Source: a virus (taxonomy: Duplodnaviria > Heunggongvirae > Uroviricota > Caudoviricetes). From it: a DNA stretch of 47,785 nucleotides. The position numbers and the translations under genes were made by a program. This document shows, one piece after another, positions 24,334 through 31,652 of the stretch (the first letter of the stretch is position 1; each line of letters begins with the position of its first letter). The notes below the pieces were generated by a model that had not been told where the DNA came from, did no database searches, and saw nothing but the letters and a program-made list of their open reading frames with translations. The DNA lies in IMG/VR virus record IMGVR_UViG_2529292853_000006. The stretch is one strand, 5' to 3'.

Positions 24334-24672
24334 ATGACACACAAGAGAATTCCTAAAGATTGGGTAATCAAACGCTCAACTCCGTTCTTCACAAAAGAGA
24401 ACGTACCTTCAGCGTTATTAACACATCATAATACAGCAGCAGGTGTTTTTGGGCAGTTGTGCGTAATGGAAGGCACTGTAACATATTATGGTTTTACTGA
24501 TGAGAATGCTACTGAACCGGAGATAAAAGTAGTCATTAATGCTGGCGCTTTTGCAACAAGCCCACCACAATACTGGCACCGTGTTGAACTAAGCGATGAT
24601 GCTCAGTTTAATATTAACTTTTGGGTCGCTCCAGACTTCTCGGGCGAAAAAGTCTATAGCACCAAAAAATAG
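24334..24672 (+). CDS. YeaR-like DUF1971 protein
   Basis: Start at the internal ATG with GAGGTGG SD; similarity to E. coli YeaR as recalled (RSTPF, CVMEGTV.YYGF.DE, INAGAFA.SPP, FNI.FWVAPD). Confidence 0.75.
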   Translation: MTHKRIPKDWVIKRSTPFFTKENVPSALLTHHNTAAGVFGQLCVMEGTVTYYGFTDENATEPEIKVVINAGAFATSPPQYWHRVELSDDAQFNINFWVAPDFSGEKVYSTKK

Positions 24673-24701
24673 ATGATCATATTAAAAATGCTTTAACAGT
24701 C

Positions 24702-24738
24702 AGACCCGGCAGGGCTATCCCCGACGGGTCTCATTTTT
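24702..24738 (+). terminator. intrinsic terminator after the YeaR-like gene
   Basis: AGACCCG...CGGGTCT stem with internal loop followed by TCATTTTTG. Confidence 0.45.
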
Positions 24739-25155
24739 GTAAATATATTGGTTCTACATTGACAGGAGACTTCAACCATAAGAAGTAATCTGAATACTTG
24801 AGCAATAAATTTACTTAAGATTAATGAGCGCACCTTGCCGGACAAAGATAAACCAAGGTAACACCTTTTTTCTAGCCAGTATGTAATCAATCAGAAAGCC
24901 GCTCCATAAGAACAACAGCAAGACAATAAATTGCCATTACAGCCGCAATAGCTAGCGCACATTTGAGAACCAGCACGACAACCTCCTGTATTGGACGTAC
25001 ACCAGTTCTGATAAATATGAGGCTGTCTCATCATTGATTCAATATAACTATTGGGTATAGTTTCTGTGATTTTGTTCTGTAGAAATGGAACACAACAACC
25101 AGTCACCACCAGCACTTCTTTAAATACGCCAAGTCCGACGCAAGCTAACCTTCTA

Positions 25156-25179
25156 GTCCGCTTTGAGCGAGGAGCGGAC
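25156..25179. repeat. palindromic GTCCGCT...AGCGGAC motif, copy 1 of 3
   Basis: Perfect 7-bp arms with a 10-nt loop, in the intergenic region upstream of the MFS gene. Confidence 0.5.
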
Positions 25180-25395
25180 CAAACCCGGCCAACTGACTCT
25201 TAAAGGGGCCGCAGGAATTTTTCGTCTGAACTTTCGAAGCTCCTCTCCCTGAAGACAGAAAACTTCTGTGTGCTGTGGGAATATTGAATCTTTGCCTTAG
25301 ATATAAATAATTTTATCCCGCCTGAAGTTTACATTATTTTATTTATCTGTTTTTCTAAATCAGACTGCACTCCTTACTTAAATCAGGAGCCAGTC

Positions 25396-28245: not shown

Positions 28246-28307
28246 GCCCACTCTCACGCGAATGCTTTGCCCTTGACTTGCCAACAACCGTATCGCTTGC
28301 TCCGCAA

Positions 28308-29585
28308 CTATGGTTTTTTATTAGAATCTTCGCCACTAAATAAATTATAATAAATTGATTTTATTAGATATCTGTCAGAATCTATATGGTCAGCACGAGT
28401 AGCATGCTCTAATGTTTCAAATGCTAGGGTTTGTGCGGCTTCAGCAAAAATTCCAGGCCAACCCTTACTCAGCATCGACAGTCCTTTAAGTACCCTTATC
28501 TGAATTTCCCTCATACTGGCACCATCGCGCGCAACAGGTGAGAAAAAGTCTTCAAGTAGATCGTTATTCTGAAGTGGTGCAACATGTACAGAAGGATATT
28601 TCACTTCTATTTCATCAGATTTATTCTGCGCGTAAGCGGAAAGTATACGTACACCTCTGCCAATGACATCAATGGCGGTTCCAGGATCGTTCACTGCGGG
28701 GGAAAGGGCTCGGCAGGCTATTTCGGCCATGACGCTAAGACAAAATCGGGGGTCCTGAGCAAATGAACGTACATCCGAGACAATAATCGTCTCAAGTAAA
28801 TCGGTGCTGATTGATGACTCCTGGCCCTGACTCAGGTACAAAACTGGCGTGGACGGATGTATGAAACTGCCCGGCTGCGCCACGAGGTATACATGACGGG
28901 GATCATTGGTCAGCAGCTTGCTGAGTTTCACCATATCAACATATTCAATATAGCCAATCTTTTTCGGATAAACTGCAACCGTTCCTTTCGGCTGTTCATT
29001 GTTCTCAAGCCATGGATATCCGCCGAGACAGGGATTTCTTGCTCTCGCAATAAATGTTTCGATGGCCGCCTGTTCTACTTTTGCCGTTGTCTCACCAACC
29101 CTCCCCAGAGAGGTCAAATGCTGTATCCAGCGAAGCAATGTGATGAGGATTAAGGCAATGACAACCAGTGTTACAATGAATAAAATGACTCTCCCCCTTT
29201 CTCCATAAGCTCCCATATTGAGGGCAATAATCCCTACCAGACTGAAGAGAAAAGAACCGATGAAGGTGGCCAGTACATTTTGTGTGGTGACGTCTTCAAC
29301 AACTAAACGAGTAGCTCTGGGAGTCACATTAGTAGTGGCTGAACCGTAGGCTGTGACCATGATGCTCAGCGAAAATGTGGTCACTGCCAGCATACTCGAT
29401 GCCAGTATGTTCAGAATGTTATCGACTGCTTCCGCACCAACCTTCACGGAAACCGACTCAGGTATCATTGATTTAAAAAGAATTGATAAAAGGGCCGTTA
29501 TTATTGCGACAATTGCGAATAACGTTGCCCTGAACCATAGTTTTTTAAATGTCTGCTTCAGCATCCATTTCCAGCGTGAAATCAT
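28308..29585 (-). CDS. DUF2254-type predicted membrane protein
   Basis: N-terminal multi-TM region plus soluble C-terminal domain; start chosen at the internal Met with GAGGGA SD (ORF track gives 29600). Confidence 0.55.
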   Translation of the reverse strand: MISRWKWMLKQTFKKLWFRATLFAIVAIITALLSILFKSMIPESVSVKVGAEAVDNILNILASSMLAVTTFSLSIMVTAYGSATTNVTPRATRLVVEDVTTQNVLATFIGSFLFSLVGIIALNMGAYGERGRVILFIVTLVVIALILITLLRWIQHLTSLGRVGETTAKVEQAAIETFIARARNPCLGGYPWLENNEQPKGTVAVYPKKIGYIEYVDMVKLSKLLTNDPRHVYLVAQPGSFIHPSTPVLYLSQGQESSISTDLLETIIVSDVRSFAQDPRFCLSVMAEIACRALSPAVNDPGTAIDVIGRGVRILSAYAQNKSDEIEVKYPSVHVAPLQNNDLLEDFFSPVARDGASMREIQIRVLKGLSMLSKGWPGIFAEAAQTLAFETLEHATRADHIDSDRYLIKSIYYNLFSGEDSNKKP

Positions 29586-29620
29586 TCTGCATTCCCTCAT
29601 ATTGCAGCCGGGATAAATAA

Positions 29621-29641
29621 ATGCCGCCTCTGTGGCGGCAT
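29621..29641 (-). terminator. intrinsic terminator after the BCCT transporter gene
   Basis: ATGCCGCC-tctgt-GGCGGCAT perfect hairpin followed by UUUAUUUAUCC on minus-strand RNA. Confidence 0.55.
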
Positions 29642-29648
29642 GTTGCTG

Positions 29649-31652
29649 TTAACGAACCAGATGCAGGAAGTGCAGGTGTTTTTCGTACTGGTCCAGTATG
29701 TCATTAATCAGCTGTTCCTGATTCCAGCCCATTACATCATAATTTTGGCCGCCCTCTTTGAGATAGACTTCAGCGCGATAATATCGATGTTGTTCACTCT
29801 GCTGCTCATCATTATCCAGCGCAGCGAGCGCGAAGGTCGGTGAGTTATACCCGCGAAGCCTCACTTCATATATATAATTCAGCTCGTTGCCCAAATCGAC
29901 TTCAAGGCGAATACGATCCTCGGCGGCGTCACTGATGTGGCTTATCGTTCCCTGCTTGTTAAGTTCCTCCTGAACCAGCGTCATGGCGGGGTGGATAATG
30001 TCGTCCATAAAACGTTTCACAAGAGAGCGCTTCGGCAAATACGCGATATTGCGTAACCTTCTCTGCCAGGGAATTGGGTTACGTGCAGCCGTAGGAGCAA
30101 TAGTCGCCATGCTAAGGCTTTCACGCTTGGTCAAATCCCGACGCAGGGCTTTTAACAGTCCGTATATGGATATTAATAAGATAACTGAGAAGGGCAATGC
30201 ACTCGCTATCGTTACGGTTTGCAACGCACTCAGCCCCCCTGCGATCAGCAGGGCAATAGCAACAACGCCCATGAGCGATGCCCAGAAAATTCGCTGCCAG
30301 ACGGGCGTGTTTGCCACCCCACCTGATGCCAGAGTATCCACAACCATTGCCCCCGAATCAGCAGACGTTACAAAGAAGACGATGACCATCGCCATTGCAA
30401 TGAATGACAGCACGGAAGAGAACGGGAAATGCTCCAGGAAATTAAACAGGGCAAGCGCAACATCCTGCTGAACGGTATTGGCGAGGTCAGTGGCGCCCTG
30501 GTTCATGATGAGATAGATGGCGCTGTTTCCAAACACCGTCATCCACATGAGCGTAAAGCCGGCGGGAACAAACAACACGCCAGTCACGAACTCACGAATT
30601 GTCCTGCCGCGGGAAACGCGTGCAATGAACATACCTACAAACGGCGACCATGAAAGCCACCATCCCCAGTATAATAATGTCCAGCCCCCCAGCCAGTTGC
30701 TCGACTTGGGTTCATACGCGTAAAGGTTGAACGTTTTACTCACCAGTTCCGACAGATAACCACCCGTATTTTCCACAAATGACTTCAGCAGAAGCACAGT
30801 GGGACCCAGGCACAAGACCAGCGCCAGGAGCAACACCGCCAGGCCCAGATTAAGCTCAGACAGGATGCGTATTCCCTTGTCCAGGCCGGACACCACCGAA
30901 ATCGTCGCTAACCCCGTGATGACCACGATCAAAATGACCTGTACCGTTTCATTGATGGGCACGCCGAAAAGATGGTTCAAACCGGCATTCACCTGCAATA
31001 CACCGTAACCCAGCGATGTTGCAACGCCAAAGACAGTGCCTATCACGGCGAAGATATCAACCGCGTGGCCTATAGGCCCGTAAATGCGATCGCCGATAAT
31101 GGGATAGAGCGCAGAACGCAGCGTTAAAGGCAGACCGTGACGGTAACTGAAAAAGGCCAGAATCAGCGCCACGATGGCATAAATTGCCCATGCGTGCAGA
31201 CCCCAGTGGAAGAACGTCAGGCGCATGGCTTCCTTCGCTGCCGCAACGGTCTCTGGAGTGCCGACAGGTGGCGAAAGATAATGCATCACAGGTTCGGCAA
31301 CGCCAAAGAACATCAGGCCGATCCCCATCCCTGCCGAAAAAAGCATCGCGAACCAGGAGTGGTAGCTGAAATCAGGCTGCGCATGGTCTGGGCCCAGCTT
31401 TATATCACCGTAACGTGAGAGTCCAAGGAACGTGACGCTCAGTAAAATCAGGGCCACAGCAAGTATGTAGAACCAGCTGGCATTCGTGAAGATTTGTTGC
31501 TGAAGTAGTTTAAAATTTTTGTCGGCGACATCCGGGAATACGGCGGCAAAGGCGACAAGAAGGAAAATTAGCAAAGCAGATGTAAAGAATACCGCTTTGT
31601 TAATCTGGCTTGTAGACTTCTTTGGGGTTGTATCATTTTCACTCATAATCAT
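29649..31652 (-). CDS. BCCT-family transporter (BetT-like)
   Basis: 667 aa; strong similarity along the length to E. coli BetT as recalled, including the C-terminal ILDQYEKHL.F.HL motif; no betABI nearby. Confidence 0.85.
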   Translation of the reverse strand: MIMSENDTTPKKSTSQINKAVFFTSALLIFLLVAFAAVFPDVADKNFKLLQQQIFTNASWFYILAVALILLSVTFLGLSRYGDIKLGPDHAQPDFSYHSWFAMLFSAGMGIGLMFFGVAEPVMHYLSPPVGTPETVAAAKEAMRLTFFHWGLHAWAIYAIVALILAFFSYRHGLPLTLRSALYPIIGDRIYGPIGHAVDIFAVIGTVFGVATSLGYGVLQVNAGLNHLFGVPINETVQVILIVVITGLATISVVSGLDKGIRILSELNLGLAVLLLALVLCLGPTVLLLKSFVENTGGYLSELVSKTFNLYAYEPKSSNWLGGWTLLYWGWWLSWSPFVGMFIARVSRGRTIREFVTGVLFVPAGFTLMWMTVFGNSAIYLIMNQGATDLANTVQQDVALALFNFLEHFPFSSVLSFIAMAMVIVFFVTSADSGAMVVDTLASGGVANTPVWQRIFWASLMGVVAIALLIAGGLSALQTVTIASALPFSVILLISIYGLLKALRRDLTKRESLSMATIAPTAARNPIPWQRRLRNIAYLPKRSLVKRFMDDIIHPAMTLVQEELNKQGTISHISDAAEDRIRLEVDLGNELNYIYEVRLRGYNSPTFALAALDNDEQQSEQHRYYRAEVYLKEGGQNYDVMGWNQEQLINDILDQYEKHLHFLHLVR

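Follow-up and report, generated by a model that had tools for sequence, protein, structure and literature searches.

The window considered here is the whole of IMG/VR virus record IMGVR_UViG_2529292853_000006, 47,785 nucleotides of DNA from a virus of the Caudoviricetes, and the locus of interest is a group of cargo genes within its phage backbone. Over 9 kb around these genes the window is 100% identical to the chromosomes of several E. coli strains, and in strain NCTC11129 the identical region sits in a prophage next to ttcA. Because the gene set of that prophage includes intR, xisR, recET, ralR, kilR, sieB and ydaS/ydaT-type genes, the prophage in the window is a Rac-type lambdoid prophage at ttcA. 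Its early-right operon occupies the minus strand and runs from ydaS/ydaT-like genes through the replisome organizer, DUF977, the cargo, DUF1367/YbcN, YbcO and the DUF1133/Q-like gene to the lysis and late genes. An initial annotation had described the cargo as one 7.5-kb block of chromosomal type, extending from 24334 to 31652 and standing in the place of the nin region. The six genes it listed are all present at or near the coordinates it gave and belong by profile matches to the families it named, and the five genes for the MFS transporter, ChaC-like protein, LysR regulator, DUF2254 protein and BetT-like transporter do have the replication module on one side and the YbcN/YbcO/Q genes on the other. 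The nin-type genes have not been lost, however, so the block stands in front of them without replacing them. Nor is it a single block, but a mosaic of the DUF1971 gene, which belongs to the phage lineage, and two independently exchangeable cassettes, here called D (MFS, ChaC-like and LysR) and E (DUF2254 and BCCT). The borders of D and E are marked by a 24-nt site (Table 1), and comparison of phage genomes carrying this site shows that cassettes have been exchanged at it, including between unrelated lambdoid and P2-like phages.

The borders of the mosaic are well defined by comparison with relatives. Relative to related phages the variable segment runs from approximately 24670 or 25180 to 31890, and thus differs in extent from the block first proposed. 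The spacer and DUF1971 gene, up to 24669, are about 92% identical to the complete Rac-like phage vB_EcoS-666R9, which has different cargo beside DUF1971, and on the strength of this match the DUF1971 gene can be assigned to the phage lineage, where by sequence comparison it is an accessory gene outside the exchangeable cassettes. The initial annotation had held that the same genes in the same position in related complete phages would speak against its reading; this is what was found for DUF1971 in vB_EcoS-666R9 and is not the case for the genes of D and E. Those genes were carried by none of 50,697 phage records, and their proposed non-phage nature is borne out by their lack in related sequenced phages and by relatives that are themselves non-phage. 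In blastn comparisons the homology of the left anchor breaks at 25179 against both phage Tritos and E. coli 10035210-2. In the latter (locus L004) two unrelated genes replace 25180-28219 while both sides are more than 99% identical, and since this strain carries E with other genes in place of D, the two cassettes are independent of one another. Homology to 10035210-2 and to the plasmid pECO-6dfa (locus L005) begins at 28220, again by blastn, and IncY and other plasmids carry the segment 28220-31919, with both of its sites, at 99.8% identity. The backbone homology of Tritos resumes at 31887 and the plasmid copy ends at 31919. Tritos and vB_EcoS-666R9 each have different cargo at the same position, and D and E are moron-like accessory cargo, present or absent among relatives at one position. 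Among complete E. coli genomes 296 of 5426 (about 5%) carry at least 80% of 24740-31890, and these carriers include many poultry and clinical isolates. The stretch 24693-25115 was considered as a possible coding region and rejected; its open reading frame (ORF) translations are Cys-rich and do not look like genuine protein, and other genomes have no annotated feature at this place.

The same comparisons bear on the simplest account of the locus, in which a single 7.5-kb piece of chromosome entered in one insertion, by illegitimate recombination or through an insertion sequence (IS), and merely interrupts the phage. The genes are of chromosomal type and IS elements often land here in other strains, but the parts of the block vary independently, DUF1971 is conserved in related complete phages, the borders of D and E carry a shared site, and no IS ends or remnants are found at the borders in the window. 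Strains with E but not D, and phages with DUF1971 but neither cassette, contradict a single insertion, which we regard as highly improbable.

Table 1. Coordinates of the cargo locus, its sites and anchors, and the neighbouring phage genes in the window
Feature	Coordinates	Strand	Basis or remark
DUF1133/Q-like gene	22092-22634	-	Pfam and RefSeq annotation of the identical NCTC11129 region
YbcO	22631-22921	-	Pfam and RefSeq annotation of the identical NCTC11129 region
DUF1367/YbcN	22921-23520	-	Pfam and RefSeq annotation of the identical NCTC11129 region
Non-coding AT-rich spacer	23521-24333		GC content 0.30; common to phage vB_EcoS-666R9
DUF1971 (YeaR/TehB-N-like)	24334-24672	+	Pfam, 2.3e-26
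Terminator-like hairpin with T-run after DUF1971	24705-24740	+	Read from sequence; similar hairpin in vB_EcoS-666R9
Left anchor, 308-bp, non-coding	24872-25179		blastn; common to phage Tritos and thousands of E. coli genomes; ends in the L-type site
L-type site	25156-25179	-	Minus strand GTCCGCTCC-TCGCTC-AAAGCGGAC; repeat search and pattern
Cassette D (MFS, ChaC-like, LysR)	25180-28221	+	Inverted L/R site pair
MFS_1 transporter	25396-26595	+	Best NCBIfam matches Cmx/CmrA, SotB, AraJ and NepI, all under cutoff
ChaC-like gamma-glutamylcyclotransferase	26607-27299	+	Pfam PF04752, 2.6e-35, 122.5 bits (cutoff 21)
LysR regulator	27296-28177	+	N-terminal HTH_1 and LysR_substrate domains
Internal R-type site, D/E border	28222-28245	+	GTCCGCTTC-TGGCAC-AAAGCAGAC; between the convergent LysR and DUF2254 ends
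Cassette E (DUF2254, BetT-subfamily BCCT)	28246-31894	-	Direct R/R sites; beside the right anchor
DUF2254 membrane protein	28308-29585/29600	-	1.5e-92
Hairpin between DUF2254 and BCCT genes	29621-29641		After BCCT
BetT-subfamily BCCT transporter	29649-31646/31652	-	NF007399, 751.7 bits (cutoff 695)
Right-anchor R-type site	31895-31918	+	GTCTGCTCT-TGGCAC-AAAGCGGAC
Right anchor element	31895-31986		From the site to the DUF977 stop codon
DUF977	31987-32409	-	End of the phage replication module
Replisome organizer	32450-33526	-	Phage replication module

The initial annotation missed the site at every border of D and E. Its consensus, GTCYGCTnn-[TGGCAC or TCGCTC]-AAAGCRGAC (also written GTCYGCTnnTsGCwCAAAGCRGAC), comprises a 9-nt arm, a 6-nt core and a second 9-nt arm, and sites are named here by their core, R-type for TGGCAC and L-type for TCGCTC. 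The reduced pattern GTCYGCT-N10-AGCRGAC occurs three times in the window, each time at a module border, against an expectation of 0.02. The array of E. coli 10035210-2 has four copies, which divide its two other cargo genes, cassette E and the anchors from one another, and two copies flank the single cargo gene of Tritos. The anchors carry a longer conserved stretch of about 90 nt, and the layout of the right anchor, motif-n18-CTGTGCC...TGTCAATTT...TCTGAACTAATGCAC, resembles both anchors of the fun(Z) locus of phage P2. A function as a single-strand hairpin or RNA element was considered and set aside, since folding of the three sites as DNA on both strands gave z-scores of -0.5 to +0.8 and Rfam had no match at the sites in the window; four loci from metagenome-assembled genomes (MAGs) that carry related hairpins likewise gave no Rfam match. 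The site is not known to bear a convincing likeness to sigma-54 promoters, boxA/boxB nut sites, lambda ori iterons, dif/Xer sites, gix/hix sites or the R64 shufflon sfx site. The literature searched, including with the site's own 15-mers, gave no description of it, although a paper of Nilsson et al. from 2004 (Mol Biol Evol 21:1; cited in PMC9122126) on the P2 fun(Z) locus, the title of which reportedly proposes site-specific recombination, may have reported the P2 copies.

The strongest evidence on what happens at these sites comes from cassettes shared by phages that are otherwise unrelated. A 1631-bp cassette is 99.57% identical between the P2-like contigs L042 and L110 and the lambdoid contig L066, and a 1033-bp cassette is 99.71% identical between P2-like L064 and lambdoid L036. 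In both cases the homology covers exactly the two sites and what lies between them, starting with the first base of one and stopping at the last base of the other; beyond it, contigs sharing a cassette have no homology. Polymorphisms within the sites locate the exchange more closely. Below DUF977 the 15 nt on the backbone side are constant and the other 9 nt change with the cargo; in the two sets of contigs sharing a cassette the inner arm moves with the cassette, including rare variants such as a terminal A, and the outer arm is specific to the backbone, with CTCTG in P2 versus CTTTG in lambdoid phages and A versus G at position 21. Because arm polymorphisms thus stay with the adjacent DNA, these comparisons show that exchange takes place at the centre of the site, within the 6-nt core or immediately beside it.

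The site is widespread in phages. An IMG/VR scan recovered it in at least 120 viral contigs, and among the matches listed, to which the counts of intervals, units and pairs given here apply, at least 97 inter-site intervals fall into at least 65 distinct cargo clusters and 40 distinct L...R units of 0.5 to 5.8 kb were derived. The cargo is mostly concerned with anti-phage defence, as judged from 84 representative proteins, and includes a CBASS cyclase with a 4TM effector, several reverse transcriptases, PD-T7-1, several PDC candidate families, AbiGi, SIR2, TIR, HEPN and RelA/SpoT, together with some metabolic enzymes; the Pfam scan of the cargo covers the best 25 of 68 families. A fixed polarity of cargo relative to the sites was considered and rejected, as 22 units have genes on the minus strand only, 10 on the plus strand only and 8 on both. 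In lambdoid contigs the array always begins approximately 70-95 nt past the DUF977 stop codon; the DUF977 gene was present in 43 of the 126 loci examined and adjoins a site wherever it was mapped. A second backbone is P2-like, with the array between the tail-fibre-assembly and tail-sheath genes, which is the variable fun(Z) locus of P2. In phage P2 itself the site occurs just twice, at 15335 and 17432, on either side of fun(Z), and neither copy is annotated in the phage's record. In the Qin prophage of E. coli K-12 (locus L127), degenerate sites at 9982-10005 and 10973-10996 flank flxA, with relBE directly beside them. The first of these falls within the annotated ORF ydfV, for which reason ydfV may not be a real gene, and the relB-side flank of Qin also adjoins cassette E on the IncY plasmid pECO-6dfa.

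The two site types are arranged according to simple rules. All of the approximately 60 inverted pairs that flank cargo consist of one L-type and one R-type site, whether in lambdoid, P2-like or other contexts, no clearly homotypic inverted pair was found among the pairs listed, and the direct pairs, 14 cases, are R/R. At the junction of neighbouring units an R site is followed by a conserved 18-nt spacer and then by an L site in inverted orientation. Cassette D is a canonical L...R unit and E has a direct R site at either end. The same rules hold in chromosomal islands of Citrobacter, Pantoea, Klebsiella, Phytobacter and Mixta, where the cargo is different and includes RnlA, a GGDEF/EAL protein, and an AraC regulator accompanied by an epimerase.

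Inverted pairs of this kind invite comparison with transposons, and the cassettes could be non-autonomous elements with the sites as their inverted ends, moved by a transposase encoded elsewhere, for example one of HUH or RAYT type that acts on hairpins. Most units are flanked by inverted copies (66 of the 97 intervals), the inverted doublets with their 18-nt spacer resemble REPINs, and the hairpin family is widespread and present in high copy. Transposons and IS elements with terminal inverted repeats would nevertheless be expected to differ from the cassettes in several respects. The outer arm stays with the backbone rather than leaving with the cassette, and the copies flanking E are direct. 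There is no sign of a target-site duplication, the site-adjacent flanks being themselves inverted repeats, and no transposase or RAYT gene was found nearby, nor is there a transposase in D or E. Repetitive extragenic palindromic sequences (REPs) typically carry a 5' GTAG, and the 24-nt sites lack it. Together these features make a transposon-like origin improbable, if less so than a single insertion.

The explanation we favour is a layered one, in which a Rac-type prophage hotspot carries two cassettes exchanged at 24-nt sites by what is probably a site-specific process; we consider it likely as a whole, and the odds within it between a dedicated recombinase and other ways of exchange at the site to be roughly even. 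The hotspot lies between DUF977 and the nin/Q-type genes and at present carries D and E. The L and R cores would act as heterospecific sites, and an L...R unit would be swapped by two crossovers, L with L and R with R; heterospecific cores would allow such a unit to be swapped without inversion or loss. An R...R unit such as E may behave like an integron-type cassette, for which the predicted junction of the circular form is …accagcGTCTGCTCT-TGGCAC-AAAGCAGACgcccac…. A more ambitious version, which we put forward tentatively and hold to be possible rather than probable, is that the sites belong to a new cassette-exchange system with two heterospecific site types and a recombinase encoded by the host or by a mobile element. 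Such a system would move defence and metabolic cassettes among several kinds of element across the Enterobacterales, namely lambdoid phages (at their replication-proximal hotspot), P2-like phages (at fun(Z)), phage-plasmids and chromosomal islands, and would be kin to high-copy hairpin repeats of alpha- and beta-proteobacteria.

Several observations weigh against site-specific exchange of D and E as just described. No recombinase was identified, no protein family is common to the lambdoid and P2-like flanks when all ORFs of 126 viral loci are compared, and nothing recombinase-like is enriched near the sites on ORF clustering of 120 genome loci, in a search that was not exhaustive, the Pfam scan of the cargo covering the best 25 of 68 families. 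An IMG/VR pattern search for an empty site, in which the left anchor meets the right anchor with only one or two sites between them, found none. A crossover inside the shared 24 nt is also expected from short-homology recombination, and the site hairpins are no more stable than shuffled sequence, a result that neither supports nor excludes a DNA-binding site. In vB_EcoS-666R9 (locus L002, 5225-7536) the same position holds a KilA-N DNA-binding protein gene and hypothetical genes, and a search tolerating up to 5 mismatches detects no site there, so that variation at this position does not depend on the site. Many contigs have inherited the same backbone, which means that the census counts are not independent of one another, and the functions of D and E are assigned by family membership only. 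Finally, a GTDB scan gave many matches in alpha- and beta-proteobacterial MAGs among the matches listed, where approximately 1 chance match is expected at the information content of the pattern, and the MAG hairpins with the same stem (ATGTCCGCTTT-loop-AAAGCGGACAT) are high-copy, REP-like intergenic repeats, with up to 14 in 8 kb, which fits a repeat-element origin of the site; no gene of recombinase or RAYT type is enriched in their vicinity.

Some of these points give weight to an alternative in which the site serves as a hairpin with a regulatory or structural role (an insulator, a stabiliser of mRNA 3' ends or a REP-like element, for instance) that is kept by each unit, and the swaps occur by short-homology recombination through RecET, Red or RecA, as has reportedly been proposed for the promoter-stem-loop (PeSL) cassettes of T4-type phages. 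The prophage encodes both RecE and RecT, and the approximately 90 nt of conserved anchor sequence could serve as homology; the want of a recombinase and the high-copy relatives of the hairpin also speak for this alternative. Since site positions 4, 8-9, 11, 14 and 21 vary, however, uninterrupted identity between sites amounts to only about 6-15 nt, and no RecET/Red-type gene was found in the annotation of P2, yet near-identical cassettes are shared between P2-like and lambdoid phages. Simple homology gives no evident reason for the strict pairing of L with R, the stability of the hairpin is unremarkable, and the occurrence of cargo on either strand relative to the sites means that the site is not a fixed promoter or terminator. 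On balance swapping by short homology at a hairpin seems unlikely, although it is the most serious of the competing explanations. The MAG hairpins are of interest in their own right. At L142, L182, L158, L152 and other MAG loci the same 9-bp stem encloses one of three loops (TGGCAC, GGGGGT or TGACCC), and the hairpins stand in tandem at approximately 45-bp spacing with a conserved TGCACTGCA linker, often near paralogous genes for periplasmic binding proteins. They look like an undescribed REP-like repeat family.

Several known systems invite comparison. Morons and the variable genes of prophage hotspots (among them emrE/ybcL/ybcM in DLP12, relBE/flxA in Qin, trkG in Rac, and fun(Z) and old/tin in P2) resemble D and E as non-essential genes that vary between relatives at a fixed position between modules and often serve defence or host fitness. 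Morons have their own expression signals, and D and E may have such signals too. Morons are not defined by a common border sequence, whereas the present cassettes have a 24-nt site with two core types and occur as identical units in unrelated phage families. Integrons offer a parallel in their arrays of diverse cassettes, their short imperfect-palindrome sites and a crossover inside the site that leaves each site a hybrid of its neighbours, as the arm polymorphisms following adjacent DNA do here, and E between two direct R sites looks like an integron cassette. Integrons require an adjacent intI and attI, however, and the neighbours of these arrays are DUF977, replisome organizer, tail-fibre-assembly and sheath genes, with IntR, some 10 kb from the cassettes, the only integrase of the prophage; attC sites have RYYYAAC...GTTRRRY boxes that the 24-nt site lacks; and the present cassettes occur in either orientation, with putative promoters of their own, most of them between inverted heterotypic sites. 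By analogy, the L/R rule would fit engineered cassette exchange with heterospecific lox or FRT sites, in which two incompatible inverted sites allow a swap without excision or inversion, and the 9-6-9 layout with its central exchange point may be compared with the core sites of tyrosine recombinases. The pdif modules of Acinetobacter plasmids are likewise modules between inverted short recombination sites, but the 24-nt site is unlike XerC/XerD sites. REP/REPIN-RAYT systems share the inverted hairpin doublets and the high-copy relatives in other bacteria, and differ in that no RAYT-like family is enriched near the sites, which in E. coli are few and confined to hotspots. In T4-type phages, short conserved PeSL motifs, reportedly described by Arbiol et al. 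in 2010 as mobile regulatory cassettes, flank variable ORFs in hyperplastic regions and are proposed to mediate their shuffling; they are said to be direct repeats acting through the phage's own homologous recombination, whereas the 24-nt sites are of two types, mostly inverted, and common to unrelated temperate phages and chromosomal islands.

The two cassettes differ in their history. An exact match to the ChaC-like protein is found in E. coli always in this Rac context, and its nearest relatives, at 82-89% identity, lie in chromosomal neighbourhoods of Enterobacter sp. BIGb0383 and of a metagenomic enterobacterium, both with the same MFS-ChaC-LysR order and the same 4-nt overlap. The BIGb0383 chromosome matches 25283-28180 at 86.8% nucleotide identity, and the metagenome contig matches at 82.1%. 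Since the 24-nt site is not present at the homologous BIGb0383 operon, cassette D is, on sequence comparison, an operon captured from an enterobacterial chromosome, with cassette-specific ends of about 100 nt and 40 nt flanking the captured genes. The initial annotation was right that the LysR gene is co-oriented with the ChaC-like gene and overlaps it by 4 nt (ATGA), an arrangement it called unusual; as the BIGb0383 trio has the same overlap, this was inherited from the source operon and is no peculiarity of the phage. For cassette E, the DUF2254/BetT pair is found without sites on 1462 plasmids, mostly of Klebsiella, at about 93% identity, and a tRNA-Phe island of E. coli has it at 94% identity together with a degenerate left site. 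At least 10 copies of the cassette were found in viral contigs, always next to the DUF977 anchor in the contigs examined. On pECO-6dfa (1151-11699), a P1-type phage-plasmid, E lies with both R sites by relB and also adjoins a qnrS1/IS26/IS1 resistance region. The same plasmid has at 4031-5008 a gene for a 325-aa tyrosine recombinase, between an L-like site and an R site.

What the cassettes may do for their host can be suggested from family membership. The labels YdhP-, ChaC-, BetT- and YeaR-like rest on family models and not on the K-12 proteins; the ChaC-like protein has no NCBIfam equivalog match, and the NF007399 match spans residues 10-667 of the 667-aa BCCT protein, taking in the full BCCT domain and the C-terminal extension. 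There are no betABI genes near the BetT-like gene, as had been noted. We infer that D encodes a regulated transporter with a putative cyclotransferase for glutathione or gamma-glutamyl peptides, and that E would import choline- or betaine-type osmoprotectants. Both may act as lysogenic-conversion genes with promoters of their own. The initial annotation expected the block to interrupt pR-driven read-through into the nin/Q genes; E is co-oriented with the early-right operon and D is antisense to it, and related inducible phages likewise carry antisense cargo at this hotspot. The expression signals first attributed to the genes held up in part. Shine-Dalgarno sequences are good for the DUF1971, MFS, ChaC-like and DUF2254 genes and weak for LysR and BCCT, the LysR gene being translationally coupled to the ChaC-like gene; of the terminators, terminator-like hairpins were seen after the DUF1971 and BCCT genes. 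Together with a match at 25284-25311, these promoter- or terminator-like matches (24705-24740 and 29621-29641) are no more numerous than in shuffled sequence. The visibly different GC content once ascribed to the block comes down to a modest contrast, with 0.52 in D, 0.48 in E and 0.45-0.50 in the phage backbone; the contrast that is visible is the spacer at 23521-24333.

Other features of the prophage deserve mention. Between the lysis and head genes, a 491-aa ORF on the minus strand (17054-18529) has a low GC content of 0.38-0.39, and as its position is annotated trkG, a potassium transporter gene, in NCTC11129 and vB_EcoS-666R9, it is a second transporter-type cargo gene of the same prophage. 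Two genes with a TolA C-terminal domain (20074-21048) lie between the Q-like gene and the holin, and between them is a degenerate copy of the 24-nt site, GTCCGCCACTGGCTCAGAGCTGAC at 20516-20539, with 2 mismatches at conserved positions, which may be the relic of a second site-bounded locus. Rfam identifies the small RNA (sRNA) STnc100 between the Q-like and TolA-like genes (21159-21345, minus strand, 86.6 bits against a gathering score of 47) and RalA, the antitoxin sRNA of the RalR toxin, at 40776-40954 (minus strand, 225 bits), as expected in a Rac prophage. The match between the window and NCTC11129 ends at 41832, a point within intR of NCTC11129. Beyond it (including 45645-46420 and 47481-47597) are an IS1-like stretch, 95% identical to IS1 in locus L006, and an ALIL pseudoknot, a frameshift element of the IS3 family, and the integrase end of the prophage may be disrupted or rearranged in the strain from which the window derives. 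The otherwise near-identical prophage of NCTC11129 (locus L001, 4495-6296 and 10413-11508) has an IS100 in a head gene, missing from the window, and a frameshifted small terminase gene. Other strains have IS3, IS66, IS4 or IS21 insertions within or beside the cassettes.

It is already well known that prophages carry cargo in hotspots and that fun(Z) of P2 is one of them, and the cargo of the window would by itself be ordinary; the notable result is that site-bounded cassettes occur across phage families under a two-type rule. A study of thousands of P2/P4 hotspots names three possible routes of exchange, none of them proven, namely transposons, homologous recombination and illegitimate recombination (PMC13586616, 2026), and an earlier one speculates that cos ends underlie exchange at the P2 hotspot (PMC9122126); the open-access papers on P2/P4 hotspots, including these two, do not mention the site and call the mechanism open or ascribe it to cos ends. 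Here a short conserved site bounds the cassettes, is common to lambdoid and P2-like phages and maps the point of exchange, and it offers a concrete and testable mechanism for the movement of cassettes between unrelated elements. It is also a simple sequence tag with which hotspots can be found and cassettes delimited in genomes. Newly found anti-phage defence systems now come in large part from phage hotspots, and what this hotspot carries extends beyond defence to a predicted regulated transporter/ChaC operon and a predicted transporter of the osmoprotectant type. Site-bounded swapping of this kind suggests how unrelated phages may trade accessory and defence genes.

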